From an uncultured delta proteobacterium (lineage in GTDB: Bacteria > Myxococcota_A > Polyangia > Palsa-1104): a DNA stretch of 64,000 bases. Shown here one piece after another: positions 11,383 to 56,067 of this stretch (positions are counted from its first letter, which is position 1; every line of letters starts with the position of its first letter). Made by a program: the position numbers and the translations under genes. Under the pieces are notes generated by a model, which worked only from the letters and a program-made list of their open reading frames with translations, was not told where the DNA came from and did not search any database. Where the stretch lies: contig CAWAWS010000039.1 of NCBI GenBank assembly GCA_963785725.1, positions 192,001-256,000 of the forward strand, in the 5' to 3' direction.

Positions 11383-11430
11383 CCAGACAAGATCCGGTAG
11401 CCGGACAAGATCCGCATACCGGTTGCCACC
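11383..11430 (+). repeat. Dispersed motif copy 1 (18-nt-period tandem, putative enhancer)
   Basis: CCAGACAAGATCCGGTAG / CCGGACAAGATCCGCATA / CCGGTTGCCACC; 11393-11430 matches the reverse complement of 50797-50834 at 36/38. Confidence 0.9.
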
Positions 11431-11488
11431 TCGCGATCGAAGCCGCGCGATCGTGAAGCAAACGCGCGAGATCGTGGGCTCGCGAATT

Positions 11489-11504
11489 CGGCACGGCGCG
11501 TGCT
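11489..11504 (+). promoter_or_regulatory. Putative sigma54 -24/-12 promoter of the comM-recA operon
   Basis: CGGCACGGCGCGTGCT; GG at 11490-11491, GC at 11502-11503 (N10). Confidence 0.7.
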
Positions 11505-11517
11505 TTGGCTCCGGCGC

Positions 11518-13038
11518 GTGCTGGCAAAAGTGCAATCCGCGGCCGTGCTCGGCGTCGAAGCGTACGGCGTCTGCGCCGAAGTCGACGTCGCCAACGGCCT
11601 GCCCGGCTTCAACTTGGTCGGGCTGGGCGCGGGCGCCGTCAAAGAGGGCAGCGTGCGCGTGCGTGCGGCGCTCGATCATTCGGGCTGGAAGCTGCCGCCG
11701 CGAAAAGTGACCGTGAATTTGGCGCCGGCCGACGTCCGCAAAGACGGCGCCGCTTTCGATCTGCCCATCGCCGTCGGCGTGCTGGCCGCGCAAGAGATCG
11801 TACCGCGCGGCGCGCTCGAAGGAATCCTCATGCTCGGCGAGCTGTCACTCGACGGCAGCCTGCGCCGCGTCGCCGGCGGCCTGCCGGTCGCGATGTTCGC
11901 GCGCGAGCTCGGCGCCAAAGCGGTCATCTTGCCGACGGCGTGCGCCGCCGAAGCCGCCGCCATTCGCGAAGTGCCGGTGCTGGCCGCATCGTCGCTGCCG
12001 GAGGTCGCGGCCTATCTGCGCGGCGAGCACGAGCTCTTGCGCGTCGAAGAGCTGCGCGTGCCCGACAAAGGCTACGACGACGTCGACCTCTCGGACGTGC
12101 GCGGTCAGGAATACGTCAAGCTGGCGCTGGAAGTCGCGGCCGCGGGCTCGCACAACCTCTTATTAATAGGTGCGCCCGGTTCGGGTAAGAGCATGTTGGC
12201 GCGGCGGCTGCCGACGATCTTGCCGCCGCTCGACGAAGACGAAGCGCTGCAGACCAGTCGCATCTACTCGGCGGCAGGCAAGCTCGAGGGCGCATCGCTG
12301 ATTCGTCGCCGGCCGTTTCGTGCGCCGCATCAAGACGTGTCGATCGCAGGATTGATCGGCGGCGGAACGGGCGTGCCCAAGCCGGGCGAGATTAGCCTGG
12401 CGCACAACGGCGTGCTCTTTCTCGACGAGCTGCCGGAGATCAAGCGCGCGGCGCTGGAAGCGTTGCGGCAGCCACTCGAAGAGCGTCGCGTCACCATCGT
12501 GCGCGCGCGCCATTCGATCGACTATCCGGCGTCGTTCTCGCTCGTCGCGGCCATGAATCCGTGCCCATGCGGCTATCACGGCTCGTCGGTGCGCAGCTGC
12601 ACCTGCGATCTCCTGCGCGTCCGTCGCTATCGCGGTCGCGTCTCGGGTCCGCTGCTCGACCGGATCGATTTGCAGGTAGAAGTGCCGCAAGTCGAGTTCA
12701 AAGATCTGACGGCCGTCCGCGAAGGCGAGCCGTCGGCGAACGTACGCGATCGCGTCATGCAAGCGCGTGAGGTGCAGCGGCGCCGTCTCGTCGGCAGCGG
12801 CTTGCACGCCAACGCGCAGCTCGGTCCGCGACAGATCGCGCGCTGGTGCAAGCTCGACGCGACATCGGAGGCGCACTTGAAGGCCATCGTCGGCAAGCGC
12901 GGCATCAGCGCGCGCGGCGTCCATCGCATCCTGCGCGTCGCTCGCACGCTCGCCGACTTACAAGGCAGCGACGACATCGTTCGCGCGCACATTCAGTGCG
13001 CCATCGACTTTCGCGCCCTCGATCAGGAGCTGCGATGA
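11518..13038 (+). CDS. comM: YifB/ComM Mg-chelatase-like AAA+ ATPase
   Basis: VNLAPAD, FDLPIA, Walker A GAPGSGKS, RPFRAPH, GEISLAHNGVLFLDE, AMNPCPCG, SGPLLDRID. Confidence 0.95.
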   Translation: MLAKVQSAAVLGVEAYGVCAEVDVANGLPGFNLVGLGAGAVKEGSVRVRAALDHSGWKLPPRKVTVNLAPADVRKDGAAFDLPIAVGVLAAQEIVPRGALEGILMLGELSLDGSLRRVAGGLPVAMFARELGAKAVILPTACAAEAAAIREVPVLAASSLPEVAAYLRGEHELLRVEELRVPDKGYDDVDLSDVRGQEYVKLALEVAAAGSHNLLLIGAPGSGKSMLARRLPTILPPLDEDEALQTSRIYSAAGKLEGASLIRRRPFRAPHQDVSIAGLIGGGTGVPKPGEISLAHNGVLFLDELPEIKRAALEALRQPLEERRVTIVRARHSIDYPASFSLVAAMNPCPCGYHGSSVRSCTCDLLRVRRYRGRVSGPLLDRIDLQVEVPQVEFKDLTAVREGEPSANVRDRVMQAREVQRRRLVGSGLHANAQLGPRQIARWCKLDATSEAHLKAIVGKRGISARGVHRILRVARTLADLQGSDDIVRAHIQCAIDFRALDQELR

Positions 13039-13418
13039 CCGCGCGCATCGAGCTGAACGACTCGGGTCGCTGTTTCTTGCGTCATCGCGAGCTGATCGAA
13101 GCGACCGAGCAGCTGTATCGCAAGATCATGACGACGCACGTCGACGCCGATCTCTTGCGCATGGGCGCGAACTGCATGCACATCGCGGCGTCGGCGGCGA
13201 TGGGCTCGCACGATCCGCGGCAGACGCTCCAGAGCTGGCGCGAATGTGCGCTGGCCGAGCGGCAGATTCGCATCGCGACCTATCGCGCGCTGCGCGACGG
13301 CTGCATCAACAAGCACCGCTACGACCTCATGTTTCAGACGGCGACGCGAGCCGCGCGAACCCGAGAGGACGAACGGCAGCGACTGCGACGGCAGCTGCTG
13401 CGCATGAACCTGGCTTGA
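13035..13418 (+). CDS. Small helical protein, four-helix-bundle (23S rRNA IVP/Avd-like) related
   Basis: ATGA overlap with comM stop; C-terminal YRALRDGCINKHRYDLM resembles YDALDEGVIDARQFDALM of the 50406-50711 protein. Family call is inference. Confidence 0.6.
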   Translation: MTARIELNDSGRCFLRHRELIEATEQLYRKIMTTHVDADLLRMGANCMHIAASAAMGSHDPRQTLQSWRECALAERQIRIATYRALRDGCINKHRYDLMFQTATRAARTREDERQRLRRQLLRMNLA

Positions 13419-13451
13419 ACGAACGAGCGAACACAACGAATGGGGGAGAAC

Positions 13452-14507
13452 ATGAAGGCCAAAGAGCGTTTGAAGGCAGTGCAATTGGCGTTGGCAGCGA
13501 TCGAGAAGCAGTTCGGCAAAGGTGCGATCATGCCGTTGCAAGGCGATCGGGTGAGCGACGTCGAGGTCATTCCGACGGGCTCGTTGTCGCTGGACGCGGC
13601 GTTGGGAATCGGCGGCTTGCCGCGCGGTCGCGTCGTCGAGATCTACGGGCCGGAGTCGTCGGGCAAGACGACCCTGACGCTGCATGCCATCGCCGAGGCG
13701 CAAAAGATGGGCGGCACGTGCGCCTTCATCGACGCCGAGCATGCGCTCGATCCGCAGTACGCGCGGCGCCTCGGCGTGAAGCTGGAGGATCTCTTGGTGT
13801 CGCAGCCGGACAACGGCGAGCAGGCGCTGGAGATCGCCGATCAGCTGATCTGCTCGGGCGGCATGGACTTGATCGTCGTCGATTCGGTGGCGGCGCTGAC
13901 GCCGAAAGCCGAGATCGAGGGCGAGATGGGCGACGCGCACATGGGCCTGCAGGCGCGGCTCATGAGCCAGGCGCTGCGCAAGCTGACGTCGGTCACGTTC
14001 AAGCAGAACACGACGATCATCTTCATCAACCAGCTGCGGCAGAAGATCGGCGTCATTTTCGGCAACCCCGAGACGACGACGGGCGGCAACGCGCTCAAGT
14101 TCTACGCGTCGGTGCGGCTCGACATTCGTCGGCTGGGCGGCTTGAAGGACGGCGATCAGGCCATCGGCAATCGCGTCAAGGTCAAGGTCGTCAAGAACAA
14201 GTGCGCGCCGCCGTTCCGCCAGGCCGAGTTCGAGATCATGTTCGGCACCGGCGTCAATACGATGGGCGAGATCGTCGACCTCGGCGTCACGCACGGCCTC
14301 ATCGAGAAGTCGGGCGCGTCGCACATGCTCGACGGCGAGCGCATCGGCCTCGGGCGCGACAACACGTGCGCGTTCTTGCGCGAGCATCCGGAGATCGCCG
14401 AGTCGTTGCGTGACCGGCTCTTGTCGGCGTTGAAGACGGCCGAGCCCGAGCTGCCCGCGGCCACGCTCGAGGACGGCGTCGAGCCGCAAGGCCTGGCCGT
14501 CGCATGA
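13452..14507 (+). CDS. recA: Recombinase RecA
   Basis: [64 protein letters not shown]. Confidence 0.98.
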
Positions 14508-15208
14508 GCGCGGTCTACACGCTGACGTTCCGCGGCGAGGATATCGTCCCCTGCGGTCGCGATCCGTTCCTGCGGCTGGAATTGGCCGCGGGCGCCATCG
14601 AGACCATCGCCGCCGTGGACGAGGGGGCGACGGTGGCGTTGCCGGCGGGGTCGCTGTTCGCGTCCTCACTGGAGCAACGGGACGATTGGGCCGGCAAGCT
14701 GGCCGACCTCTCGCGTGAACACGGCGTGGGACTGGCGTTTGGTATCGATCTGCTCGCCGACGAGCAATGGGTGGGGGCCCGTCGTCCGCGGTCGTTCGCG
14801 TTTGCGTGCGACCGCGGGCGGCGGCTTCTGTGGGCGTCGGCGGCGACGCGCGATCGAGACGTGCTCGACGATCGCGCGGTCTGGCTGAGCGGGCGGCAAA
14901 CGGTCGTGCTCCTGCAAAGCGACATCTTTCGCGCCGCTGCCCGCACGGTGGTCGAGCGCACGAAGCCAGATTTGACGCTGATCTTGGCTTACGGCGGCGC
15001 GACGCCGCGCTGGCGGCCGGCCTTGACGGCGCTCGACCGGCTGGCGCCGACGCTGCTCGTGCGCGAAGAGCTGTCGCGACGGCAGTCGGCGTGGACGGAA
15101 GCGCCGCGCGGCTGGCACGCCTCGGTCGCCTCCGCGTCGTCGTTCCTGACGGTCCATCGATTCCGCCCGCAAGACGTTGGCGTGCAGCCATCGGTCATGG
15201 GAGACTGA
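14504..15208 (+). CDS. Hypothetical protein, possible catalytically dead nitrilase fold
   Basis: ATGA overlap with recA stop; [30 protein letters not shown] and PDLTLILA echo CN-hydrolase motifs. Confidence 0.65.
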
Positions 15209-15215
15209 AGCGTCC

Positions 15216-17339
15216 GTGGGCAACGCGCGCGTCAACGTTCGCCGCAGTCGCTGGGCGGCCGCGAGCGGCCCCGTCGCCGGCGCCTTCGCGCTCGCCATCT
15301 TCTTCGGCCTCGATTTCGTCGGCGCCACGCTCGAGGTCATGGGCTTCTCGGACGAGAAAGCCTACAGCCTCATCCTGCATCGCTACGGCCGGCAGATCGT
15401 GCTCGATCAGCTGCGCGTGCTCGCCATCTACCTCGTCGCCGGCGCGATCTTCGGCGGCCTCGGCGCGCTCGTCGGCCGCTGGTGGGATCGCGCCCGCGGC
15501 CGCTCGCCGTCGAACGCGCGCCGCCTGGCGTGGAGCGTCTCGACGGCGCTCGTCCTGCACGCCTACTTCTTCGCGCGCAGCGTCGTCCACTATCCGCAGC
15601 TCTATTCCGAAGCGTTCTACGATCGGGGCGGCTTTCGGCGCGCGGCGATGGTGTGGCTGACGGAGCAGCTGTCGGCGCGCACGCTCGACGTCGGCCTCGG
15701 GCTGCTCATCGTCGTCGTCCTGGCGCTGCCGCTCGCCAAGCCGCACGCGCGCTCGGTCGCGCTCGCCTTCGTAAACCGACACGCGACTAAACGTTCGCTG
15801 CGTTGGCTTGGGCCGGCGGCGCTCCTCGTCTTGGTCCTGGCGACGGGCCTCTTCGTGCGCCGACATCATCTGCGGCACCCGTCGCGGCAGCCGAACGTGC
15901 TCTTGCTCGCCGTCGACAGCTTGCGCGCCGATCGCGTCTTCGGACCCGACGCCGCGCGCCGTTTCCCGTCGCTGGCGCAGCTGGCGTCGCGCGGCGTGCG
16001 CTTCGACGAGGCGCACGTGACCGTGCCACGAACGTTCCCCTCGTTCGTGACGCTGTTGACCGGTCGTTATCCGCATCATCACGGCATTCGCCACATGTTT
16101 CCGTCGGCAGCCGAGCGCGCGGCGATCGGTCCGGCGCTGCCGTCGGTCTTGCGCGATCACGGCTACCGCACGAGCGTCATCAGCGACTACGCCGGCGAGA
16201 TCTTTTCGCGCACGCCGATGGGCTTCTCGACGATCGACGTGCCCTACTTCGACATGAAGACGATCGTCGGGCTGCGCGGGCTGCAAGTGCATCCCAACGT
16301 GCTGCCTTATGCGACGAGCGAGCTCGGGCGCCGCCTCTTTCCGGCCGTCAACGCGATGCCGGAGCTGTCGGATCCGGCGCGCCTGGCTAAGCGCGCGCTG
16401 GCCGAGCTCGATCGCGCCGGCGATCAGCCGTTCTTCATGACCGTGTTCTTCTCGGCGGCGCATTTTCCCTACGCCTCGCCCGATCCCTATTATCGACGTT
16501 ACGGCGGCCACGATTACGACGGCCCCTATCGTTATCAGAAGCCGCCTTTGGCGCCGGCGCCGGCGGGCGAGCCCGATCGGCAGCAGATTCGCGCGCTCTA
16601 CGACGGCGCCGTGGCGGCGACCGACGCGGCCATCGGACGAATTCTGACGCGCCTCGAGGACGATGGGCTGGCCGACGACACCATCGTCGTGCTGCTCGCC
16701 GATCATGGGGAAAACCTCTACGACTTCGAAGATCGCGGAATGGGTCACGGCGATCATCTGCGGGGAAGCGCCGCCGATCATGTGCCGTGGGTGTGGATCG
16801 ATCCGCATGATCATCTGCCGCCGCACGATGTTCCCGGCCTCGTGCGCGACGTCGATTTCGCGCCCACGCTGTCGAAGCTGCTCGGCATTCCGGCGCCGCC
16901 GACCGACGGCGTCGACCTCGGCCCGCTCTTGCGCGGCACCAAGTCGACGCTCGATCTCGACGCGTTCCAAGAGACCGAGCTGTGGTTCACGAGCAACGGT
17001 CCCGGCTTCGGTCCCGACGAGCGGCTGCCCTATCCGACGATCACCGGCGTGTCCGACATGGCGCCCGACGACGACATCTATTTGCGTCCCGAATGGCAGG
17101 ATACGGTCGTCGTCGCCAAGCACCGCGCGCTGCGCACCGATCGCTGGAAGCTGCTCTATCGTCCGACGCGGCAAGGCGTCCTGTGGAGCCTCTACGATCT
17201 GCGCCAAGATCCCAACGAGCGTCAGGATGTGTTGGCCGAGCATCCCGATGTCGCGGCGAGCCTCGAGCAAAAGCTGAAGGCGTGGATGCTGCAAGATCCG
17301 CGGATGACGATGCGCGGCGAGTTCCTGGTGCCGAAATGA
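15216..17339 (+). CDS. Membrane-anchored sulfatase-like hydrolase/transferase
   Basis: N-terminal TM helices; PNVLLLAVDSLRAD, RTFPS..LLTGRYP, ADHGE, HGD. Confidence 0.85.
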   Translation: MGNARVNVRRSRWAAASGPVAGAFALAIFFGLDFVGATLEVMGFSDEKAYSLILHRYGRQIVLDQLRVLAIYLVAGAIFGGLGALVGRWWDRARGRSPSNARRLAWSVSTALVLHAYFFARSVVHYPQLYSEAFYDRGGFRRAAMVWLTEQLSARTLDVGLGLLIVVVLALPLAKPHARSVALAFVNRHATKRSLRWLGPAALLVLVLATGLFVRRHHLRHPSRQPNVLLLAVDSLRADRVFGPDAARRFPSLAQLASRGVRFDEAHVTVPRTFPSFVTLLTGRYPHHHGIRHMFPSAAERAAIGPALPSVLRDHGYRTSVISDYAGEIFSRTPMGFSTIDVPYFDMKTIVGLRGLQVHPNVLPYATSELGRRLFPAVNAMPELSDPARLAKRALAELDRAGDQPFFMTVFFSAAHFPYASPDPYYRRYGGHDYDGPYRYQKPPLAPAPAGEPDRQQIRALYDGAVAATDAAIGRILTRLEDDGLADDTIVVLLADHGENLYDFEDRGMGHGDHLRGSAADHVPWVWIDPHDHLPPHDVPGLVRDVDFAPTLSKLLGIPAPPTDGVDLGPLLRGTKSTLDLDAFQETELWFTSNGPGFGPDERLPYPTITGVSDMAPDDDIYLRPEWQDTVVVAKHRALRTDRWKLLYRPTRQGVLWSLYDLRQDPNERQDVLAEHPDVAASLEQKLKAWMLQDPRMTMRGEFLVPK

Positions 17340-19699
17340 GGGCATCGTTGGCGCTGCTGCTCGCGTTCACACTCGCGGCTTGCGGTCGCAAACCGGCGGC
17401 GACGACGTCGTCCGCCGCGCCGGCGAGCGCCTCCACGACGACGCCATTGCCGCGCACGAGCGCCGGCGATCGGCTGGCCTTCCGCTTGATCGATCACGCC
17501 GGCGCGGCGACACGCAATGGGCCGCCACTCGCCGACGCCTGGCAGACGCTGGCCTATCCGGCGAAGCTGGCCGACCCGTACGCCGGGCTGCGTGGCGACG
17601 AGGCGTTGCGCGTCATCGAGCTGGCGCTGGCCGACTCCGACGTCGCGTCTTACGGCACGCCGCATCCGCTGTCGCCGGCCCGCGCTCGCTCGCTGCGCTT
17701 CGATCCGGTGTGGAATCGCACGCGCGCGGTCTACGAGTCGAAGCGCGCGCTGTTCGCCCCTGGTCAAAATCGCTACGAGTTTCACGTGCCAGCGACGACA
17801 AAGGGCGAGCTGCAAGTGGCGCTGGCGGTCGTGCCTGGCGGTCACGCCACGACGTTTACGATCGCCGTCGACGGCGTGGAACAGCTGCGCCGTCCGATCC
17901 CCGACGCGCAGGTGGGCGCTTGGATCGACACGAAGACGCCGCTGCCGCCGGGCGCGCACACGATCGCGCTCGTGACCGAAGGCGAATCGGCGGCGTTTTG
18001 GGGCGATCCGGTGATCGTCGATCGCGAGACGCAGCGGCCGACGCCGAATGTGCTGTTCGTGGTCATCGATACCTTGCGCGTCGATGCGCTGCCGGCGATG
18101 CCGCGCTTGCAAGCGCTGGCGAAACAGGGCGCGAATTTCACGCAGGCGATCACCGCGGCGACGTGGACGCGACCGTCGGTGCTGGCGATGCTCGGCGGCG
18201 ATTTGCCGACCGCGCTCGGGCAGGCGGCGGAGGAGATGATCCCGTCCGATCGCAATCGGCGCCGCTTTTATGCCGTCGCGCCGCCGCTCTTGCCGCGCGT
18301 CATGGAAGAGCAGGGCTATCGCGCGATCGCCATCGGCAACAACTTCTTCCTGCTCGGCTATCCCGAGATCGGGCTGTCGCTCGGCTTCGACGAAGTGGCC
18401 GATATTCGCGACCCGGTGCTGGACACGCCGGCGATCACGAATGCGGCCATCGCGTTCATGGAAGCGCATCGCGACGAGCCGTGGCTGCTGCATCTCCACT
18501 ACGACGCGCCGCACTGGCCCTACACGCCGCCGCCGGCCTATCTCGGCAAGGTGCCACCGCTGCCGTTTCCGGTTGATTCGATGGCGAAGTCGTACCTGGC
18601 GGAGGCCGCGTATGCCGACGATTATCTCGGCCGCGTCATCGATGCGCTCGATCGGCTGAAGCTGAGCGAGCAAACGATCGTCGTCGTCATGGGCGATCAT
18701 GGCGAGATCTTCGATCACGCGCATGCACACACCGTCGACGCGCTGAAGCTGCCGACGCTGCATCATCACGGCTGGTCCGGTTACGACGAGCTCTTGCGGG
18801 TGCCGCTCGTGTTTCGCATGCCGGGCACGATTCCGGCGACGACGATCTCGCAACAGGTGAGCCTCGTCGACGTGGAGCCGACCTTGCGCGAGCTCGTGGG
18901 CATCGCGCCGCGGGAAGGCGCGCGCGGCCAGTCGCTCGTGCCGGCGTTCGAGGGGCGACCGCTGACGGAGCGGCCGGCGTTCGTCGAAGGCCAAGACGTG
19001 CGTGTCGTCCGCGACGGCGGCTGGGCCTATCTCCGTCGCAGCGATGGCCGGCTGACGCTGGAAAACGGCGCGCATGTCGTGCGCACCGAGGAGCTGTACG
19101 ATCTGCAGCGCGATCCGCTCGAGCATGACGATTTGGCGGCGAAGCGACCGGCGGATTTGGCGCGCATGCGGGCGCTCTTCGACCGGGAGACGCCGACGTC
19201 ACGCGACGCGCCGGTGGCCGTCTTGCATCTGCGGGCGGCGCCTGATGCGCGGGCGCATGTCGTCGAAGCCGTGGTCCGCAGCGACGGCGCAATTTCCGTA
19301 CGCGGCGTGGCCGGCGCCGAGGCTGCGCCCGTCGACGCGCACACGCTGGCGCTCACCTTGCGCGGCGCCTCTCAGGTGGATTTGGCGATCGATCCGCCGA
19401 CCGCGAGCGTGCAGCTCGACCTGCGTCGCGATGGCACGCCGTTGACAGCGCGACAGCTGCTGCTCGGCGAATTCGCGCTGCCGCTCTTGGCATCGGAGCC
19501 GCGGGTGCAGCTGCGCGGCGAGCGGCTGACTTGGCTCGACGCCGCGCGGCCGCCGGTGCCGGGCGAGCGCGGCGAGCTGCTCTTGTGGCGCGATCCGAGC
19601 CCGATTACGTCGCTGGGGCTACCGGCGAGCGGCAGCAAATCGTCGAGCGAAGTGGCGGGAATGATGCGGCGCTGGGGTTACGCGCAGCCGGGACACTGA
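17336..19699 (+). CDS. Sulfatase-like lipoprotein
   Basis: LAA-C lipobox; PNVLFVVIDTLRVD, WTRPS, DAPHWPY, GDHGE, ELYDLQRDPLE; ATGA overlap. Confidence 0.85.
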   Translation: MRASLALLLAFTLAACGRKPAATTSSAAPASASTTTPLPRTSAGDRLAFRLIDHAGAATRNGPPLADAWQTLAYPAKLADPYAGLRGDEALRVIELALADSDVASYGTPHPLSPARARSLRFDPVWNRTRAVYESKRALFAPGQNRYEFHVPATTKGELQVALAVVPGGHATTFTIAVDGVEQLRRPIPDAQVGAWIDTKTPLPPGAHTIALVTEGESAAFWGDPVIVDRETQRPTPNVLFVVIDTLRVDALPAMPRLQALAKQGANFTQAITAATWTRPSVLAMLGGDLPTALGQAAEEMIPSDRNRRRFYAVAPPLLPRVMEEQGYRAIAIGNNFFLLGYPEIGLSLGFDEVADIRDPVLDTPAITNAAIAFMEAHRDEPWLLHLHYDAPHWPYTPPPAYLGKVPPLPFPVDSMAKSYLAEAAYADDYLGRVIDALDRLKLSEQTIVVVMGDHGEIFDHAHAHTVDALKLPTLHHHGWSGYDELLRVPLVFRMPGTIPATTISQQVSLVDVEPTLRELVGIAPREGARGQSLVPAFEGRPLTERPAFVEGQDVRVVRDGGWAYLRRSDGRLTLENGAHVVRTEELYDLQRDPLEHDDLAAKRPADLARMRALFDRETPTSRDAPVAVLHLRAAPDARAHVVEAVVRSDGAISVRGVAGAEAAPVDAHTLALTLRGASQVDLAIDPPTASVQLDLRRDGTPLTARQLLLGEFALPLLASEPRVQLRGERLTWLDAARPPVPGERGELLLWRDPSPITSLGLPASGSKSSSEVAGMMRRWGYAQPGH

Positions 19700-19705
19700 C
19701 GGAAG

Positions 19706-43839: not shown

Positions 43840-43854
43840 CGACGTACAGGTGGG

Positions 43855-47187: not shown

Positions 47188-47305
47188 GGTCGGCGGTTCC
47201 GCGGTCTGGCGTGTGATGATACCGAGCCCGCGTGTCGAAGTCAAAACGCTCGCTCGGAGTTTCGTCGGGTTGGGTGCATGCGACCATCATGTTACCGTCC
47301 GACGA

Positions 47306-48155
47306 ATGGCTGTCACAGCATTCGTCGCTGTCACCGATTTTGGTCGATTGTCCGCCGGGGACGCCCTCGAATGGCTCGCCACACTGCCCGCAGCCTCGGT
47401 AGATCTCGTCTTCGCCGATCCCCCGTACAACCTCGGACGCGAGCATTGGGACGATTTCGGGTCCAACGACGACTACGTCGCTTGGAGCCGTCGCTGGATC
47501 CTCGAGGCGGCGCGCATTCTTCGTCCGACGGGTTCTCTTTACATTTGCGGGTTTTCCGAGCTGTTGGCCGACGTTAAGGTCATCGCCGCGCCGCACTTCG
47601 CCGGCTGTCGCTGGCTCGTCTGGCACTACCGCAACAAAGCCAACCTCGGGCGCGACTGGGGCCGGTCGCACGAGAGTGTCTTGCACTTGCGGCACCGCGA
47701 CTTCGTCCTCGATGTCGACGCGGCACGCGTGCCTTATAACGCGCACACGCTGCGCTACCCGGCCCATCCGCAAGCGGAGACGTCGCGTTACGGTCGCCAA
47801 AAGTACGTCTGGCAGCCCAATCCACTGGGTGCAAAGCCTCGAGATGTCATCGAAATACCGACTCTTACGAATGGAATGCGAGAAAAGACGATCCATCCGA
47901 CACAGAAGCCGCTCGAGCTGGTTCGTCGGCTCGTGGCGGCCGCTTCGCGACCGGGAGATCTCGTCGTCGACCCGTTCGGCGGCTCCGGAACGACATTCGT
48001 CGCCTGCGAGGCGCTCGGTCGCCGCTGGCTCGGGTGTGAGAATCGATCCGCGTTTTCAGCAGCTCATCGCCGAACGGCTGGCGCAGCCCGTCAGCGACGA
48101 GACCGCCGGTCGCGCCGAGGCCCGCCGCCGCCTCGCGCGCAGCAACCTGCGTTGA
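47306..48155 (+). CDS. Orphan N4/N6 DNA methyltransferase (beta class), frameshifted near 48041
   Basis: DPPYN, HPTQKP, DPFGGSGT; removing one A at 48041-48042 gives GCEIDPRFQQLIAERL. Confidence 0.88.
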
Positions 48156-48181
48156 CGGGCGCGCGCCGCTGCCGGTATAAG
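48152..48181 (+). promoter_or_regulatory. sigma70-type promoter
   Basis: TTGACG-18 nt-TATAAG upstream of ATG 48192. Confidence 0.55.
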
Positions 48182-48191
48182 CGGAAGCTCT

Positions 48192-48683
48192 ATGGCGCCC
48201 GAAGAAATCTGTCGCAAGGTTGGTGAGCAGAAGACGAAGAGCATCTTCTTGGAGCTCACCGCCGAGGCGATGAAGAAGGTGCTGCGCGAGGCGAAGATCC
48301 CCACCAATCGCCTCGCCAGCCATACGTCCACTCGCAAGCGGAACGACGACTGGGCCAACCGGGTCTGGCGCACCGTCTCCAGCAGCGCAGCTTCGACGAC
48401 CGCTGCGACGCTGCTCTTCGAGTGGCTCACGCGCACCCGGCGCAAGATGCTGGCGCAGTTCCTGACCGCGCTCGAGGTTCCGCACGAGGACGGGCTCACC
48501 GACGCCGATTTCATGCAGACTTCGACCCCCGAGAAGCTCATCGAGGCGGCCAAGAAGCTGTTCGAGACGCACGACAAGGCCGAGGTGGCGGCTTACCTGC
48601 TGTTCCTCGACGCGTCGAACAAGAGCGAGATCTTTGCGCCGTTGGAGCTCGAAAAGTATCTCCTGGCACCAGCCGCCGCCTGA
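48192..48683 (+). CDS. Hypothetical protein
   Basis: GC-rich third codon positions, natural composition, own promoter. Confidence 0.8.
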   Translation: MAPEEICRKVGEQKTKSIFLELTAEAMKKVLREAKIPTNRLASHTSTRKRNDDWANRVWRTVSSSAASTTAATLLFEWLTRTRRKMLAQFLTALEVPHEDGLTDADFMQTSTPEKLIEAAKKLFETHDKAEVAAYLLFLDASNKSEIFAPLELEKYLLAPAAA

Positions 48684-48738
48684 AGATTCAGCCACAGCTT
48701 GTTGCGCCGCACGCTCGGTCCGCTCACAATGTTTTCCA

Positions 48739-50403
48739 GTGATTGGTCGAGCTAGGGTCGCTGTCGCACTGGCGGTAGCATGTGCGTTGTGCGCGCCAGC
48801 GCTGGCGGTGCCGAAGCGCGCCAAGGCGCGCCTGCCGATCGCGGCCACGCATGGAAGCGCGCGCCAGGCGCGGATGCTGCCGACGAAGAAGCCGCTGATC
48901 GCCGCACCCATCCGCCGCGACACGAGCACAACTCCGCGCGAAGTCGCCAATCCGAATGATCCTCGTGAGCTGCGCATCGCTCACCTACGCGAACGCCTGC
49001 TGTCGATGCTGCACGAGGCACCGCTGAGCCGAACCAAGGTCGGCGTCGAGGTGATGCAGGCTTCGAACGGCGACGTCCTCTTCGCGCACAACTCGGCGCA
49101 GCAGTTCAATCCAGCGTCGAACACCAAGATGCTGACGACGGCTGCCGCCATGTCCTATCTCGGCGCCGATTTTCGTTATCACACGTCGCTGTTCGGTCCC
49201 GAGCCCGACGCGGATGGCGTCGTGCACGGTGACGTGTCCTTGCGTGGCAGCGGCGATCCGTCGCTGACGACGACCGATGTCGCCGAGATCGCGCGCGCGC
49301 TCGCGTCGCGTGGCATTCAGCGCATCGAGGGCGATCTCTATTCCGACTCGCGCTTTCACGGCAAAGGCAGCGAGCAAAATGGCGACGGTGAAGGCGCGCT
49401 GATTCTCAACCGCAACACCTACGCGGTGCGCGTGCGGCCGGGCGAGCTCGGTCACGCAGCGATCGTGTCGATCGAGCCCCACGTCGATCTCTTCGCCGTC
49501 GAGAATCAGACCCAGACGGTGCGCGCGAAGCGTTCCCGGTTGCGCATCGATTCCTACCGCAAGGACGATCGGCTGGTCATCACCGTTCGCGGTCGCATGG
49601 CCGAAGGGCACGACGATTACACCGACATGCGCCGCCTGGCCGACGGCTCGCTCTTGACCGCCGCCGTCTTGCGTAGCGCGCTGGCTGATTTCGGCGTCGA
49701 GCTGACCGGTCGAGTGCGTGCCGGCAACGTCGCAGGTCCGGCGCTGCTCGGCGAGCATGTCTCGGCACCGCTCGCTGATGTTTGTAAAATCTCCAACAAG
49801 CCGTCGAACAACTTTGTCGCCGAGGCGATCTACAAGACGCTCGGTGGCGAGCTCTACGGTGCCCCGGGAACGCTCGCCAAAGGTACGAAAGCTGTCATGG
49901 AATACTTGACCAGCGCCGGCATCAAACCGGGCGCGGTCAAGATCGTCAACGGGTCGGGGCTGACGCACGAGAATCGCATCACGCCCTCGGACTTGGCGAC
50001 GCTGTTGCGCAAGATCTATTACGACATGTCTGTCGCGCCCGACTTCTTGGCGTCGCTGGCGATCGCCGGGATCGACGGGACGATTCGCAATCGCTTCATG
50101 GGCACCGACGCCGTCGGGCTCGTGCGCGCCAAGACCGGCACGCTCACCGGCGTGTCTGCGCTGTCGGGATACGTCGGCGACAAAGACGACGTGCTCATCT
50201 TCTCGATCTTCGTCGAAGGCTTTCGCCACAAGAAGACGAACGAAGTTCGGCACGCGCAGGTGCGCATGGTCGAGGCGATGTTGTCTTATTTGCGCAGCGA
50301 CGCGCCAGCGACGAACGGCAGCGATCGCGACCAGGAAATTCCGGCCGAGCTCACGCCCGACGACTCCGAGTCCGACGGCGATCCGCAGCTTCCCGCGCCC
50401 TGA
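48739..50403 (+). CDS. dacB: D-alanyl-D-alanine carboxypeptidase/endopeptidase PBP4
   Basis: PASNTK (SxxK), GSGDP, SNN, NGSGL, AKTGTL. Confidence 0.93.
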   Translation: MIGRARVAVALAVACALCAPALAVPKRAKARLPIAATHGSARQARMLPTKKPLIAAPIRRDTSTTPREVANPNDPRELRIAHLRERLLSMLHEAPLSRTKVGVEVMQASNGDVLFAHNSAQQFNPASNTKMLTTAAAMSYLGADFRYHTSLFGPEPDADGVVHGDVSLRGSGDPSLTTTDVAEIARALASRGIQRIEGDLYSDSRFHGKGSEQNGDGEGALILNRNTYAVRVRPGELGHAAIVSIEPHVDLFAVENQTQTVRAKRSRLRIDSYRKDDRLVITVRGRMAEGHDDYTDMRRLADGSLLTAAVLRSALADFGVELTGRVRAGNVAGPALLGEHVSAPLADVCKISNKPSNNFVAEAIYKTLGGELYGAPGTLAKGTKAVMEYLTSAGIKPGAVKIVNGSGLTHENRITPSDLATLLRKIYYDMSVAPDFLASLAIAGIDGTIRNRFMGTDAVGLVRAKTGTLTGVSALSGYVGDKDDVLIFSIFVEGFRHKKTNEVRHAQVRMVEAMLSYLRSDAPATNGSDRDQEIPAELTPDDSESDGDPQLPAP

Positions 50404-50405
50404 CC

Positions 50406-50711
50406 TCATCGCTGGGCCCGCTCGGCGAACAGGCGGCGCGCGCGCGTGCGATCGATCATCAGGGCATCGAATTGCCGGGCGTCGATGACGCCTTCGTCGA
50501 GCGCGTCGTACAACAGCGGGCCTAATCGCTCGACGCTGAGCTGCGATTGCACCGGCGCTTTCGGCACCAGCTCTTCCGGTCGCGGAATGCAGGACGCGCG
50601 TCGGCGAACGGCGTTGGCGAGGTCGGGACGATCGAATTGCAGATCGTCGCAGAGCCGATCGACGTTGTGGTGAATCTCGGCGAACAAGGCGGCAAGGCGG
50701 TCGTTGAGCAT
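50406..50711 (-). CDS. Four-helix-bundle-like protein (23S rRNA IVP/TIGR02436-related, divergent)
   Basis: DLANAVRRRASCIP and LYDALDEGVIDARQFDAL resemble the family motifs LxxQxRRAxxSIP and LYxAxDxGYI. ATG 50711 chosen because the promoter overlaps the 50723 start region. Confidence 0.65.
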   Translation of the reverse strand: MLNDRLAALFAEIHHNVDRLCDDLQFDRPDLANAVRRRASCIPRPEELVPKAPVQSQLSVERLGPLLYDALDEGVIDARQFDALMIDRTRARRLFAERAQR

Positions 50712-50723
50712 GCGCGGGGCCAT

Positions 50724-50739
50724 TGCGAGCGACGTGCCG
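50724..50739 (-). promoter_or_regulatory. Putative sigma54 -24/-12 promoter
   Basis: Minus strand CGGCACGTCGCTCGCA, GG-N10-GC. Confidence 0.65.
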
Positions 50740-50796
50740 CTGGCCGCGTTAGAAGATCCGCATGGTTACGGTGATAGGGAAGCTCAGGTGGTCTCG

Positions 50797-50834
50797 GGTG
50801 GCGTCCGGTATGCGGATCTTGTCCGGCTACCGGA
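50797..50834 (-). repeat. Dispersed motif copy 2
   Basis: Minus strand TCCGGTAGCCGGACAAGATCCGCATACCGGACGCCACC, 36/38 identical to 11393-11430. Confidence 0.9.
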
Positions 50835-51115
50835 CGGCTTCATGCTTCATGCGAGGCGTGCAGCCGCTGCGGCTATCACGTCCCCGTAGGACTGCAGCGT
50901 CGTCGAGGCCGTGACACGACTTGCCATCGGCCGTGGCCGTGCTTGGTTACGTGCAGGCGAGCTTGAGCGGGAAGTGAGCAACGATCACCGGCGCGTCGTC
51001 GTGGCTCGGTCACGTCGAGCCGAGGCGAGCGCCAGCAAGTTCCCGAGTCGCAGCGTGTAACTCTCCCGTCGCGCGGTCGGCCGTCAGCGTGAGGGTCCTG
51101 CTCCCGACCCGCGCT

Positions 51116-51769
51116 TCAATGCAGCAACTCCACTGCACCGGTGTCGAGGTCGTAGCGTGCGCCAATCACCTTGACCTTGCCCTCCTGAACCAGCGGCGCG
51201 ATTACCGGGCGCGAGGACTGCACGTCGTTGACCGATGCGGCCACGTTGGCGCGCACGGCTGCTTCGACGGGATCTCCGTCCGGCTTGGGGGCACGCGCGA
51301 TCGCCCGACGAATGCGACTGACCAGCGCGTCGATGTGCGCCCCCGGCGCGTCGGGCGCGAGCGCCGCTTCGACCGCACCGCAGCGCTCGTGCCCAAGCAC
51401 GACCACTAATGGGACTCCGAGGTGCTCGACGGCGTACTCGATGCTGCCGAGGACGGCGTCGTCGATCACGTTGCCGGCGATGCGGATGACGAACAAGTCT
51501 CCGATGCCTTGGCCGAAGATCGCCTCCGGCGGGACGCGCGAATCGGCGCAGCCGATGACCACGGCGAGCGGGTGCTGTGAGGTCGCCACCTCGCCGCGCC
51601 GCGCCCGCGTCTGGCGTGGACACGACGCACCCGCGGAAACGAAGGCGTGATTGCCAGCGATCAGCGTCTTCAATGCGGCATCAGCCGTGGGCGTCTGCGT
51701 TGTCGGCTCGGCAAGGACGCGTAGTGGCAGGCCCAGGGCTAAGACCAGGACGCAGGGGTGGACGCGCAT
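51116..51769 (-). CDS. Beta-class carbonic anhydrase with signal peptide
   Basis: GCADSRV, RIAGN, GSIEYAV, GHERCGAV. Confidence 0.93.
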   Translation of the reverse strand: MRVHPCVLVLALGLPLRVLAEPTTQTPTADAALKTLIAGNHAFVSAGASCPRQTRARRGEVATSQHPLAVVIGCADSRVPPEAIFGQGIGDLFVIRIAGNVIDDAVLGSIEYAVEHLGVPLVVVLGHERCGAVEAALAPDAPGAHIDALVSRIRRAIARAPKPDGDPVEAAVRANVAASVNDVQSSRPVIAPLVQEGKVKVIGARYDLDTGAVELLH

Positions 51770-52208
51770 GACCTTGGTAGTAACCGCCCGACCCTGCTGT
51801 GAAAGATAGGAGATCGCTGTAGCGCGGTCGTCGACATTCTCAACCAGGCGTTCTTGCGGCAGGGGCGGACACGCCCAAGTCGTCGCGACCGCTACCGCCC
51901 GGGGTAAGCAGCTTCGCCACCGCGTTCTTTCCACCTTGGTCCGATCGACCTGGTTCCCTGAATAGTCCGCTACGGTCCTTCGTCGCATGACTGGCTGCTC
52001 TAGCCAGCTCACGAGACTAGCGACGGCCTCCTCAATTAGTGAAGTGAGTCGCATCGAATTCATCGGCGCATTGTTTGCCAGCGACTGCACCAACGCCACG
52101 AGGGTCCGGTAGGCCTTTTCTCGGAGCAGAAAGTCGATCGAGGTCGCGCAAATCCGGAGTCACATAATGGCCTTCACCCGATCACCGTTCGAGGGCCCTA
52201 AGCGGACG

Positions 52209-53303
52209 ATGATGCTGCGTGCCTTGCTGTCGCTGCTGTTCGCCGCCGGCTGCGCTGCGCCCGGAGCCGATGCCGCGTCGCGACCACCGAGCGAGTATCA
52301 GGTCGGCGCCTACTACTTCGCTGGCTGGTGGTCCACGCCGGTTCCGTCGAACTACCTCACCAACCACACGACCGACTGGCGCCCGCAATACCCCGAGCGC
52401 GAGCCGGTGTTCGGCTGGTTCGACGATACCCAGGCTGCCGTCGACCAGGAGATTGCGCTCGCCGCCGATGGTGGCCTCGACTTCTTCGTATTCGACTATT
52501 ACGCCGAGGTTGGGCCGGGCAATCCCGGCGCCGCCGAGAATGCCAACAATGGGCTGAAGTATTATTTGACGTCGCCAAACAAGTCGCGTTTGCGATTCGC
52601 GGTCGTTTACGTCAACCACTCCTTTTCGCCGACGGCAAATTGGGACGCGAACGTGGCGGCCTGGATCGATTTGATGCGCGATCCGCAATATGTCTCGATC
52701 GCGGGGAGGCCGATTCTCATCGTCATTCGCCCCGACCTCTTACGCACTGCTTGGGGATCGGCCGCTGCTGCACGAGCGGCGCTCGATCGCTTGCGCGCGC
52801 AAGCGATCGCCGCCGGGCTGCCGTCGCCACTCATTGGCGGCGGCGCGGTCTACGAGGCGGGCGCCTACGCGAGCACGAGCGCCGCCGACGGCTACGACTT
52901 TCTCACCACCTACGCGCTCGACGTCGACGACACCACCATCTTCCCGTCGGTGCCGACCGACTATTCCGATATGACGCGCACCCAGACCGAGCTGTGGCGT
53001 GGGCTCGCGGCGGCGTCGCCGCTTCCTTACGTGCCATCGGCGCTCGCCGGCTGGGACGCGCGGCCGATCCCCGAAGGCACCAACTGGATCACCGGACAAA
53101 CGTCCGACGGCCTGCGTGCGCTGATCGTGGCCGAGCGTGATGCCATCGATCACCACGCCAACTTCCGCCTGCCGGCGCGCGATGGCTCCATCGGCGTGGC
53201 GCTGGTCTACGCTTGGAACGAGCTGAGCGAGGGTGGCTACATCGTGCCAACGCTGGCGCAGGGCGACGCCTACCTACGCTCGGTCACCGGCGTCTTCCGC
53301 TAA
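52209..53303 (+). CDS. GH99/GH71-like (WbsX-type) glycoside hydrolase lipoprotein
   Basis: FAAG-C lipobox; AYYF, P.FGWFDD, GLDFFVFDYY, GWDARP, YAWNELSEGGYIVP. Confidence 0.8.
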   Translation: MMLRALLSLLFAAGCAAPGADAASRPPSEYQVGAYYFAGWWSTPVPSNYLTNHTTDWRPQYPEREPVFGWFDDTQAAVDQEIALAADGGLDFFVFDYYAEVGPGNPGAAENANNGLKYYLTSPNKSRLRFAVVYVNHSFSPTANWDANVAAWIDLMRDPQYVSIAGRPILIVIRPDLLRTAWGSAAAARAALDRLRAQAIAAGLPSPLIGGGAVYEAGAYASTSAADGYDFLTTYALDVDDTTIFPSVPTDYSDMTRTQTELWRGLAAASPLPYVPSALAGWDARPIPEGTNWITGQTSDGLRALIVAERDAIDHHANFRLPARDGSIGVALVYAWNELSEGGYIVPTLAQGDAYLRSVTGVFR

Positions 53304-53645
53304 GGGCCGCCGGAACGCTCGAGACGCGAGCCGTCTCTTACTGAGCCGGACAGCTATTGGGCACGTTGGCCCTCGCGCAAACCATTCTCGGGCTTCGCTG
53401 CCACGCGAATTGTTCGGCCGAGTCTCAGACGTCCATTGCCTTCCTACCTATAACCAGCGTCCGATCGCTCCCGCGTAAGCTCGACTCGAAACGAAGCGAA
53501 ATGTCGCGAACCTGGCACGTGCATGTGGGACTGGCGACGAGGGCGCAATGCTAACGCTAAGGCGCAATTGACCGCCTAACCGCTGCTGCGTTTGAATGGC
53601 GCCCGAAACGCGCACCGGCTCCCTACCGTTTTGCGGAGGCTCGCG

Positions 53646-55124
53646 ATGAAAGGCATCACGCGTCGGCAGGTGCTCGAAGGTCTCGGACTGGCGATCGGCT
53701 CGGCGACGTTGGGCGCCGCGTGCCACGACGGCCACGCCGGCGGCAACCAGGACGCAGGCGGCGGCATGCAAGGCGCGCCCGATCTGGCGACGGGCGCTGA
53801 CCAATCGGTGCCGCGTGACATGGCGATGGCGCGAGACGCCGCCGCACGTGACGCCGCCACCGCCCCCGACATGGCCGTGAGCGACCAGCAGCTGCTGGCG
53901 TCCATCGATAACATCGTCGTGCTGATGATGGAGAATCGCTCGTTCGATCATTATCTAGGCTCGCTCGCGCTCGATGAAGGGCGCCCGATCGACGGCCTGA
54001 CCGGCAACGAGTGGAATCCCGATCCCAACGGCAACAAAGTGTTCGTGGCGCCCTTGCCCAATCTGACGCCGGCCGATCCGCCGCACGATTGGGATCCGGC
54101 GCATCAGCAATGGGACAACGGCGCCAACGACGGCTTCGTCATCGCGCACGCCGGGGCCGATCAGAACGACGTCATGGGCTATTACATGCGTTCGCAGCTG
54201 CCGGTGACCTACGCGCTCGCCGACCAGTCGGCGGTCTGTCAGCGCTGGTTCTCGTCGCTGCTCGGTCCGACCTGGCCCAATCGCATGTTCCTGCATTGCG
54301 CGACCTCCAACGGCGTCACGACCAATATCCCGTCGACGGGCTCGCCGAGCATCTTCGATTCGCTCGATAACGCGGGAATATCGAATAAGAATTATTATTC
54401 GGATATCGCTTGGGCTTCCGGCGGATATCTCAAGCTCAACGGGCTGGCCACGATCGAGACCTATTTTTCGGACGCCGCGGCCGGCACGCTGCCCAGCTTT
54501 TCGATCATCGATCCGATGTTTCTCGGCGCCACGGCCAACGACGATCATCCGAGCCATGACGTCACGCTCGGGCAGACGCTCATCAGCACGGTGTTCGCGG
54601 CGCTGGCGGCCAGCCCGCAGTGGAATCGCTCGCTGTTCGTGCTGGTCTACGACGAAAACGGCGGCTTCTTCGACCACGTGCCGCCGCCCACGACGACCGA
54701 CGAGCGCACCGAATTCCAGCAGCTCGGCTTTCGTGTGCCGACGCTGGTGGCGGGTCCGTGCGTCAAGCGCGGCGCGGCCATCGACACCGTCTTCGACCAC
54801 GTGTCGGTGGCGGCCACCGTCGCGGCGCGCTGGGGGCTGCCGCCGCTCAACGCGCGTACGGCGGCGGCGAACACGCTCGCCAGCTGCATCGATCCCAGTC
54901 TACTCGGCAAGCCGCAAGCGCCGCCGAAGCTGCCGATGATGAAGATTCGTCGCTCACGCTTCGTCAACCGGCCGGCCTACAGCGGCGAGCATCCCGAGCT
55001 CGTGGATGCGCTCGAACGCGGGCACATTCCGCGGCGCTTCGATCGGCGCAGCCAGGCGCGCGCCATCACCGATCGCATCCTGGCCGAAGGCGTGCGCCTC
55101 GGCACGGTCCAGCTCCTCGACTGA
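53646..55124 (+). CDS. Phosphoesterase/phospholipase C family, Tat lipoprotein
   Basis: TRRQVL Tat motif, GAA-C; MMENRSFDHY, GPTWPNR, DDHP, YDENGGFFDHV, GFRVP; GGAGG RBS. Confidence 0.92.
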   Translation: MKGITRRQVLEGLGLAIGSATLGAACHDGHAGGNQDAGGGMQGAPDLATGADQSVPRDMAMARDAAARDAATAPDMAVSDQQLLASIDNIVVLMMENRSFDHYLGSLALDEGRPIDGLTGNEWNPDPNGNKVFVAPLPNLTPADPPHDWDPAHQQWDNGANDGFVIAHAGADQNDVMGYYMRSQLPVTYALADQSAVCQRWFSSLLGPTWPNRMFLHCATSNGVTTNIPSTGSPSIFDSLDNAGISNKNYYSDIAWASGGYLKLNGLATIETYFSDAAAGTLPSFSIIDPMFLGATANDDHPSHDVTLGQTLISTVFAALAASPQWNRSLFVLVYDENGGFFDHVPPPTTTDERTEFQQLGFRVPTLVAGPCVKRGAAIDTVFDHVSVAATVAARWGLPPLNARTAAANTLASCIDPSLLGKPQAPPKLPMMKIRRSRFVNRPAYSGEHPELVDALERGHIPRRFDRRSQARAITDRILAEGVRLGTVQLLD

Positions 55125-55214
55125 CGCCGCTCGCCGCGTCGGGGAGGCTCGCTTCCAACGACTGGCGGCGCGATGGCGGCGTCGCTTCGGACACCATCGC
55201 TCGAGCCGAAGCGC

Positions 55215-55583
55215 TCAGGGCCGCTGCGGAAACGGCTTGCCGTCGACCGGGCCGACGTCCATGCCGTCATACGTCTCGATGCCGCACGCCGTGGCGAAGC
55301 GATTGAGCTGTTGATTGCGCGCGTCGAGCGAGTCCACGTCATGTCGTTCGACGCGTTCGACATGCAGCACCCACGTCGGCGCCGGGCCGTCGTCAGGCGC
55401 GGCGTCCGCTTCGAAGAGCGCGACGAGGCGATAGCCGTCCTGCAAGAGATCGGGCACTGCCGACCGCAGCGTCTCCGGATCGCGATCGACGAAGAAGTAG
55501 CCCCACAGCAGCTCGCGCTCGGTGTCGACGCCATGATCGGCCGTCTGCGCGAATAGGGCGATTGCGGCGTTGCGGTCGATCAT
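55215..55583 (-). CDS. RraB/DUF695-like acidic protein
   Basis: LLWGYFF..L...GY...YDG pattern; GAGG upstream of ATG. Confidence 0.7.
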   Translation of the reverse strand: MIDRNAAIALFAQTADHGVDTERELLWGYFFVDRDPETLRSAVPDLLQDGYRLVALFEADAAPDDGPAPTWVLHVERVERHDVDSLDARNQQLNRFATACGIETYDGMDVGPVDGKPFPQRP

Positions 55584-55639
55584 GGAGCCTCGCGTTTTCC
55601 GTCGTAACCGCGGCGAAGACGGTCTCGGCGACACCTAAC

Positions 55640-55809
55640 ATGCCTTCGCCGGGATCGTCCATGAGCTCGCTGTCGATTTCGATGACGCTGCCGACGGCGA
55701 TGAGCCCGCTTCATGTCGTCGAGCGGGCAAACTTGGGCGTGCTGCCGATGGCCTCGGCGACGTCCAATGGAACGCTCGACGAAGTGGCGCTGGTGACATG
55801 AGTGGCCAC
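55640..55809 (-). pseudogene. Possible decayed four-helix-bundle gene relic
   Basis: Minus frame VATHVTSATSSSVPLDVAEAIGSTPKFARSTT*SGLIAVGSVIEIDSEL echoes SxPxNIAEG..IAxGSxxE; in-frame TGA at 55713-55711. Confidence 0.4.
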
Positions 55810-55820
55810 TGTTCGCGAGC

Positions 55821-55838
55821 TGTCCGGCTACCGGATCT
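55821..55838 (-). repeat. Dispersed motif copy 3 (core only)
   Basis: Minus strand AGATCCGGTAGCCGGACA, 18/18 identical to 11390-11407. Confidence 0.85.
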
Positions 55839-55889
55839 ATTCTTGCGCTGGGCTCGTCGAGAAATCACGGGTTACACGAAATGATCGCG

Positions 55890-55905
55890 CGGCACGAAAC
55901 CTGCT
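55890..55905 (+). promoter_or_regulatory. Putative sigma54 -24/-12 promoter
   Basis: CGGCACGAAACCTGCT, GG-N10-GC, ATG at 55918. Confidence 0.55.
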
Positions 55906-56067
55906 GAGCCCGCACGCATGAACGCCGCTCGGCTCAAGTCGCAGCTTCGCCGTCGCGTGCGCGTGACGCGCCGGCCGCGACGGGCGAGCCGCCTCTTGAC
56001 CTTGGTGGTCGTGCTGCTCGGCTTCGCTTCCTTTTATATGTGCTGCGAACGCGACGTCTACGGCGCG

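Follow-up and report, generated by a model that had tools for sequence, protein, structure and literature searches.

A paired palindrome at sigma54 promoters marks a candidate competence-linked recombination regulon in myxobacteria

Introduction

Why should comM, a recA gene and a gene for a small helical protein share an upstream element in one genome? The question arises from a stretch of 64,000 nucleotides of an uncultured delta proteobacterium of the lineage Palsa-1104 (assembly GCA_963785725.1, contig CAWAWS010000039.1, positions 192,001 to 256,000; hereafter the window), in which a nearly identical intergenic element lies in front of a sigma54-type promoter both at comM and at a small gene, orf101. 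Sigma54 promoters are opened by activator dimers that bind upstream sites and oligomerise. A sequence-only reading of the window had proposed a shared enhancer of a sigma54-controlled recombination or competence-like regulon with small helical proteins or, alternatively, a cis element that spreads together with four-helix-bundle genes. Here, we followed the element through the genome of origin (8.9 Mb, 68% G+C, 88% complete) and its relatives. The results indicate that a conserved sigma54 enhancer regulon is very probably present; that its purpose is competence-linked recombination is a probable reading, held with less assurance.

Results

The double palindrome and its promoters

The two long copies of the element, at 11393–11430 (+) and 50834–50797 (−), were identical at 36 of 38 positions, as the sequence-only reading had stated. 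The recurring unit was not a 38-mer, however, but a pair of 13-bp palindromes, TCCGG-N3-CCGGA, with 5 bp between them. The double palindrome predicted to be the enhancer of the comM operon occupied 11393–11423 (+), its centres preceding the −24 GG by 91 and 73 bp, and a third, degenerate palindrome lay 18 bp further upstream (11375–11387, +). The predicted enhancer of orf101 occupied 50804–50834 (−), with centres 90 and 72 bp upstream of the GG. Two single, strand-neutral palindromes were also present, one at 55821–55837, centred 62 bp upstream of a GG at 55891, and another, overlooked in the sequence-only reading, at 6415–6431, 17 bp before the gene at 5535–6398 (−) and lacking a corresponding sigma54 sequence at the spacing seen elsewhere. 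The exact 18-mer core occurred only at 11390–11407 and 55821–55838; the second long copy matched the core at 15 of 18 positions. When up to three mismatches were allowed, the window contained four matches against 0.06 expected, a number attained by none of 100 shuffles.

The sigma54 −24/−12 sequence of comM was located at 11489–11504 (+; GG at 11490–11491, GC at 11502–11503), that of orf101 at 50724–50739 (−), where it was kept in relatives, and a third, facing the open reading frame (ORF) at 55918, at 55890–55905 (+), kept in G003 and G002. We confirmed the proposed distances of 60 and 59 nt from motif end to the first G of the GG (G at 11490 and 50738), as well as start codons 15 and 14 nt after the −12 C without a Shine–Dalgarno sequence (GTG at 11518, ATG at 50711). 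The start codon followed the GC by 13–14 nt at six of the eight promoters of this genome, so leaderless mRNAs are predicted there; the orf82 and M4 protease promoters had longer leaders with a Shine–Dalgarno sequence.

Sites in the genome of origin

Seven double sites were detected in the genome, all seven paired with a sigma54 −24/−12 sequence, in addition to one single site with such a sequence. Six of the double sites were located upstream of the promoter of comM-orf127-recA, orf101, orf82-comEA (C38), radC (C14), orf150 (C47) and a gene pair for an M4 protease and an amino-acid permease (C29). Three of them were in one orientation, with centres 89–91 and 71–73 bp from the GG, and three were in the opposite one, at 68–69 and 50–51 bp, two helical turns closer. 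The fixed spacing to sigma54 elements expected by the sequence-only reading was therefore found genome-wide, as phased distances. The seventh double site was inside a gene for a GH18-deacetylase-GT2 fusion, 216 and 234 bp downstream of its sigma54 sequence (217 and 235 bp in two relatives). In this fusion (G000:C21:117-357; L045; L070), the double site fell in a variable N-terminal linker.

To obtain an independent measure, we trained a matrix on the comM regions of relatives only and applied it to this genome. The six upstream promoters scored 29.1–37.2 bits among 2043 sigma54 candidates, and the next candidate scored 9.0. The reversed genome yielded no pairs, compared with eight in the real one. 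As a background, sigma54 scores of at least 8 were found at 276 of 3318 gene starts, as defined by a crude in-house gene caller. The genome encodes rpoN (C20) and has 84 matches to PF00158. Two further sigma54 sequences were each accompanied by one good palindrome, at C39:341383 (+; 17.0 bits, 73 bp) and C9:110924 (−; 13.5 bits, 85 bp), and are possible extra members.

Conservation and helical phasing in relatives

For the comM locus within the order, we used the 29 best-matching of the 35 genomes that gave a match, representing three families. The sigma54 sequence was at the same place in 28 of 29 loci, recA was adjacent in 26, the site was present in 26 and the pair in 16; these site counts are partly circular, since comM regions of relatives had served to train the matrix. 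At the orf82 loci, comEA was adjacent in 28 of 29, a sigma54 sequence was present in 24 and the site in 13. For radC, both site and sigma54 sequence were found in all nine genomes of two families. The consensus was YGTCCG-N5-CGGACR, with palindromes 18–19 bp apart; variants such as TGTCCC-N5-GGGACA occurred in other families. A pattern search in 40 relatives, with 40 sites read, showed that orf82-comEA, orf101, radC, the protease and the glycosyltransferase recur as targets. A strict scan of a named collection identified 48 loci, some of which overlap the other genomes compared; 38 were labelled myxobacterial or deltaproteobacterial. Relatives with the pattern bear Myxococcota/Polyangia labels, and we accordingly regard the genome of origin as probably that of a myxobacterium in the wide sense. 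Downstream of the 48 loci were comEA (10), comM (4), genes of the orf101 type or adjacent to dacB (6), transposases (4), the protease (2) and radC (1); the remaining loci were left unassigned. In the wider phylum, for which 40 comM loci were picked for spread out of 144 genomes, recA was within the stretch in 25. Altogether, the members conserved beyond the order were comM, recA and orf82-comEA.

The phasing set comprised 98 promoters with 160 distinct sites, related genomes included. Adjacent palindromes were 18–19 bp apart in 64 of 81 cases, and the distances of the proximal palindrome clustered at 50–51, 61–63 and 71–73 bp. The helical phase score at 10.5 bp was 0.62, against a null maximum of 0.31.

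Other arrangements were also observed. In one genome (L135/L386), one short intergenic region separates the divergent orf82-comEA and comM-recA, and each side of it has a sigma54 sequence. In another relative, five tandem 18-bp palindrome units were present (L043:553-637), with no sigma54 sequence found nearby. G186 contained 231 exact single palindromes, compared with 72 for a control pattern; in the six or more stretches that were read, most of them were not at sigma54 promoters.

comM and the second recA

The comM gene (11518–13038, +), with a predicted leaderless start, encodes a YifB-family AAA+ ATPase (TIGR00368, 555 bits; cut-off 362). The comM-linked recA (13440–14507, +; PF00154) is a second copy, RecA1-type by position. 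The other recA of the genome is at C14:326919 in a cinA-ligT context; it reads in shifting frames (G000:C14:326780-327911), as do the split rpoN and several split activator genes, and these splits look like assembly indels rather than true pseudogenes.

The number of recA genes was compared with the type of comM promoter in 22 genomes. Two recA genes were present in 13 of the 15 genomes judged to have a sigma54-type comM promoter, including two promoters judged by eye at a score of about 7, and a single recA was present in all seven genomes without one. One relative, G018, had no element at comM and one recA; neither rpoN nor an activator gene was detected in it. In G186, G043 and G065, the second recA is away from comM and has its own site (19–20 bits) and sigma54 sequence. 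None of the cinA/ligT-linked copies, in the 30 of 35 matches fetched, had both a site and a sigma54 sequence. On a quick tree, the comM-linked copies formed one group, modestly supported (82).

No Myxococcus xanthus record matched the strict pattern in the named collection, and this species was compared by gene positions and published data. Its comM (MXAN_1443) precedes recA1 (MXAN_1441) by 1.7 kb, both genes having the same orientation (PMC9548883). The comEA-like MXAN_6588 is overlapped at its start by a gene of 252 bp (PMC9548883), and this pair resembles orf82-comEA by size and position only. Like the second recA described here, M. xanthus recA1 is near comM; it is described as weakly expressed, without a LexA box and required for the homologous integration of electroporated DNA (PMC7029660). 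It differs in that a gene on the opposite strand lies between recA1 and comM.

Small proteins of the regulon

Overlapping the comM stop codon, orf127 (13035–13418, +) was modelled as a four-helix bundle of the S23/IVP/Avd fold (pLDDT 92.6). The model matched 2rld (Z 14.7; root-mean-square deviation 2.7 over 110 aligned residues) and 2gsc (Z 14.6; 1.6 over 106), with talin tied at 14.0 and Avd at 12.7, and the top nine rows of a Foldseek search were 2rld and 2gsc. The predicted fold is that of the S23/IVP proteins (PF05635, TIGR02436) and of Avd from diversity-generating retroelements. Unlike these, orf127 had no hidden Markov model match, shared only 9–12% identity, was seen with neither a reverse transcriptase nor an rRNA context, and occupies a single fixed locus. 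Among the loci examined, it was confined to one family (7 of 29 comM loci of relatives). The orf101 gene (50406–50711, −; orf105 if read from an ATG inside the promoter) encodes a small helical protein, is convergent with dacB and has 165 homologues. In the proteome of this genome, orf127 was the sole other match to an orf101 profile of 121 rows (E 1.5e-4), and we conclude from this profile match that the two are homologous. Neither orf127, orf101, orf150 nor their homologues matched PF05635 or TIGR02436 above the Pfam/NCBIfam cut-off, and no homology of orf150 to orf127, orf101 or the PF05635 gene was detected.

The sequence-only reading had placed a four-helix-bundle-like sequence at each of three copies of the element. 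This was supported by the fold of orf127 and by its homologue orf101; at 55640–55809, the supposed relic gave no signal in six frames with two profiles (best E 0.33), and the one open frame there had no Pfam/NCBIfam match. Five of the eight promoters have no four-helix-bundle gene, and the only PF05635 gene of the genome has no site; the proposed link between the regulon and small helical proteins is therefore secondary, and the four-helix-bundle genes are lineage-specific passengers. The alternative of an element spreading with such genes received no support.

The orf82 gene (G000:C38:79635-79883; L007:1153-1398, −), tied to comEA, belongs to an unnamed family with 2406 representatives, predicted to form four beta-strands and a flexible tail. 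No family match was obtained, nor any fold match in two libraries; the ESM Atlas gave a lead to DUF736 at 0.77 only. Because the C-terminal residues of 18 of 149 homologues are PF, as in the tails of SSB proteins, and tandem fusions occur, the sequences suggest an oligomeric single-strand-binding protein of a candidate new family.

Downstream of the single palindrome at 55821–55837, a conserved ORF begins at 55918. Its N-terminal part (55918–56160, +), with a basic start and a hydrophobic segment, was 42–52% identical in G002 and G003. The frame remains open for 889 codons, antisense to three genes including one for a pseudouridine synthase, and conservation was tested for the first ~80 codons.

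Probable rearrangement at shared sites

In G003, the comM site is a divergent double site common to comM and the 55918 ORF, and in G003, G019 and G021 the gene equivalent to 5535–6398 is divergent from orf101 across a double site. In the genome studied here, both genes are separated from these former partners and each has one palindrome (55821 and 6415). Since each separated partner retains one palindrome, the single sites of the window probably mark rearrangements at shared enhancers, and the palindrome at 6415–6431 was likely left behind in this way. Between that site and the comM site are genes for a malate synthase-like protein and isocitrate lyase (7031–11226), which are not at this position in G003.

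The sequence-only reading had also taken the unconserved DNA between motif and promoter as a sign of preserved spacing rather than recent duplication. However, the 3′ flank GCCACC is found at both sites in a same-genus relative as well, and the gene order at both single sites differs from that of this relative; besides selection, shared descent or exchange may therefore contribute to the near-identity of the two long copies.

Mobile elements with the paired palindrome

Immediately behind the element and a sigma54-like sequence, genes for IS91/ISCR-like transposases start at six loci (L048, L050, L051, L072, L073 and L104; NF052416, E 5.6e-58, under the cut-off, with a partial protein) and RAYT-like genes at three (L086, L088 and L113; NF047646, E 6.7e-8 and 1.2e-3, also under the cut-off). 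As the transposase genes start after the site, and identity between transposon copies begins at or near it, the sequences suggest that transposons captured the host enhancer. In those elements, the palindrome may serve as a transposase hairpin.

Candidate activators

Three candidate bacterial enhancer-binding proteins were profiled across 34 genomes. For a PilR2-like gene upstream of pilM, four of 13 motif-bearing genomes had no match at E 1e-28 and two more had only a weak one. A receiver-type activator encoded next to gspC (C13:34902-36356) was present in 13 of 13 but missing from the site-bearing G127; in one genome, it is divergent from comM across a double site, and no other activator locus was accompanied by a double site. 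The third candidate, an FHA-GAF activator (C5:350608-352419), occurred in 12 of the 13. Both of the last two also occur in genomes without the comM promoter. Identification of the FHA-GAF protein with Nla18 was dropped, because Nla18 is listed in a table of M. xanthus proteins with a shorter architecture that has no GAF. The labels PilR2-like and Nla4-like are presumptive and based on synteny.

Discussion

The paired palindrome is likely the binding site, or enhancer, of one putative sigma54 activator. By analogy with other sigma54 systems, two activator dimers would bind the palindromes spaced by 18–19 bp, oligomerise and open a promoter 50–90 bp away, yielding mostly leaderless mRNAs. The activator would thereby switch on comEA, the putative single-strand-binding protein gene orf82, comM, radC and the dedicated second recA jointly. 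Judging from this gene content, the programme would serve competence in natural transformation, and the genes of the uptake channel and the pilus would be controlled separately. Four-helix-bundle genes, the M4 protease-permease pair, the glycosyltransferase and some transposases would be lineage-specific additions to this core.

Several observations weigh against such a regulon or its assignment to competence. In the genome studied here, dprA, comEC, comF, ssb, pilA and pilM have no upstream site, and the enrichment for dprA, comEC, pilins and ssb predicted by the sequence-only reading was not found; its proposal of a sigma54 enhancer over a recombination or competence-like regulon is supported by the phased sites and by the targets comEA and radC. 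Nor did intragenic sites with a pair score of at least 18 occur, and the pilA promoter beside a PilR-like gene has a sigma54 sequence and no palindrome site. The set is thus not a full uptake machine, and we regard the regulon as a variant of the competence type rather than a full member, because comEC, dprA and the pilus genes have no site. The M4 protease, the glycosyltransferase and the 55918 ORF have no known role in transformation. In a third family, radC was without both elements in 19 of 19 genomes, with one locus too short to score. Among the 40 comM loci beyond the order, the site was found in 11 and the pair in 3, although a sigma54 sequence was present in 28; several of the other loci showed related repeats by eye. 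Related genomes, those of the phasing set included, are not independent. None of the three activator candidates in the 34 genomes was singled out as cognate, and their recognition helices do not track the motif variants. Finally, M. xanthus recA1 has been described with its own promoter (PMC7029660), and RecA1 was increased with mitomycin C and in a lexA mutant (PMC12288472).

DNA damage induces competence in several bacteria, so a repair and a competence reading of the same genes may overlap. The enhancer could be real and yet serve a LexA-independent response to DNA damage or replication stress, with comEA and comM induced within repair. In agreement with this, an XPB-like helicase gene adjoins or overlaps a double site in two relatives (L081:2813-4183; L053:1826-2692); the homologue in the present genome (C7:81170) has none. 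There, lexA, uvrB, recN, ruvB, radA, imuA and recA2 also have no site, which speaks against membership in a LexA/SOS regulon, and ComEA, a periplasmic DNA receptor, has no known repair role. M. xanthus recA1 is UV-inducible, at a late stage and without a LexA box (PMC7029660), and RecA1 protein rose by 2.3 log2 with mitomycin C; the available supplement of that proteomic study, however, has no row for ComM, RadC or ComEA by name (PMC12288472). We consider this explanation unlikely. A broader scavenging or developmental programme, in which protein digestion, import of amino acids and DNA, and polysaccharide genes are controlled and the recombination genes ride along, would account for the element at the M4 protease-permease pair and the GH18-deacetylase-GT2 fusion in several genomes. 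It would also agree with the increase of comM, recA1, comEA and comEC by 1.2–2.1 log2 in a developing M. xanthus mrpC mutant, although thousands of genes appear in the table in question, and its available part had no entry for radC or MXAN_6587 (PMC11980068). Because what is conserved beyond the order is comM, recA and orf82-comEA, and the M. xanthus comM, recA1 and comEA genes were expressed at only ~0–9 fragments per kilobase per million both alone and during predation (PMC9548883), such a programme is improbable.

The palindromes could instead be hairpin ends of HUH-type mobile elements of the REP or IS91-like kind, next to promoters by accident. Each palindrome could form a stem of 5–6 bp, and the transposase genes that start right after the element, with copy identity beginning at or near the site, are in keeping with such ends. 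Against this, the seven double sites in 8.9 Mb are all linked to promoters, unlike REP-type repeats; orthologous positions are kept across families, with helical phasing; and in G018 the element was lost together with sigma54. Compared with shuffled sequences, stem pairing was in excess at one position, borderline at one inner position and not in excess at the other five of seven, and the T/A pair showed no compensatory changes against 37 one-sided ones. A palindrome read by a protein therefore fits better than a hairpin, and hairpin ends appear very improbable as the general explanation.

The reading that we prefer remains a sigma54 regulon for competence-linked recombination. A fuller version of it, which we offer tentatively and as far from settled, is an ancient and normally silent competence programme of myxobacteria and other deltaproteobacterial lineages, with one sigma54 activator, its own RecA paralogue (RecA1), orf82 as a new single-strand-binding family, leaderless mRNAs and an enhancer captured by single-strand-DNA transposons, which would thereby produce their transposase while the host is taking up and recombining DNA.

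In some species, recA is within the competence regulon, and in Haemophilus this regulon is under Sxy-CRP. The competence regulons of Legionella (RocC/RocR), Vibrio (TfoX/QstR) and Haemophilus share the targets comEA, comM and radC with the regulon predicted here. They differ in their control, by a small RNA or by CRP/LuxR-type regulators at sigma70-type promoters, in contrast to the sigma54 enhancer predicted here, and in including comEC, comF and often pili and dprA, whereas our set has no comEC, dprA or pilus gene and includes a separate recA paralogue. The link of RpoN/PilR to competence in Ralstonia and other pilus-dependent species is believed to run via pilin expression; here, by contrast, sigma54 sequences are directly on DNA-receptor and recombination genes. 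In Legionella, comEA, comM and radC are co-regulated competence genes (PMC12378983), and in Ralstonia, sigma54 is reported to be required for natural competence (PMC4371752). The known M. xanthus sigma54 regulons (Nla28, NmpR, PexR, HsfA and PilR) likewise combine −24/−12 promoters with tandem upstream sites, sometimes intragenic (PMC7910581). The Nla28 half-site, CT(C/G)CG(C/G)AG, differs from our palindrome, as do the reported targets of these regulons from ours.

We found no description of the motif or regulon in full-text literature searches, which did not reach subscription papers. COG2003 is presumably RadC. It was enriched in a genome-wide sigma54 survey, the available text of which mentions neither COG0606, COG1555 nor competence (PMC12316311). 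The supplements of this paper and of PMC9705874 and PMC9109919, as text only, had no rows for the genes in question, and their figures may bear on novelty. Competence and recA do not occur in the available text of a Desulfovibrio sigma54 regulome study (PMC4641369), and the terms 'competence', 'transformation' and 'recA' do not occur in a 2025 review of M. xanthus. A switch for natural transformation in myxobacteria thus appears to be undescribed so far.

How myxobacteria control DNA uptake, and why most of them have two recA genes, are questions that the motif and its target list address. If the proposed reading is true, sigma54 would control a competence regulon directly at its DNA-receptor and recombination genes, and mobile elements would borrow the competence switch instead of disabling it. 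Natural transformation would then become a genetic tool for these producers of natural products.

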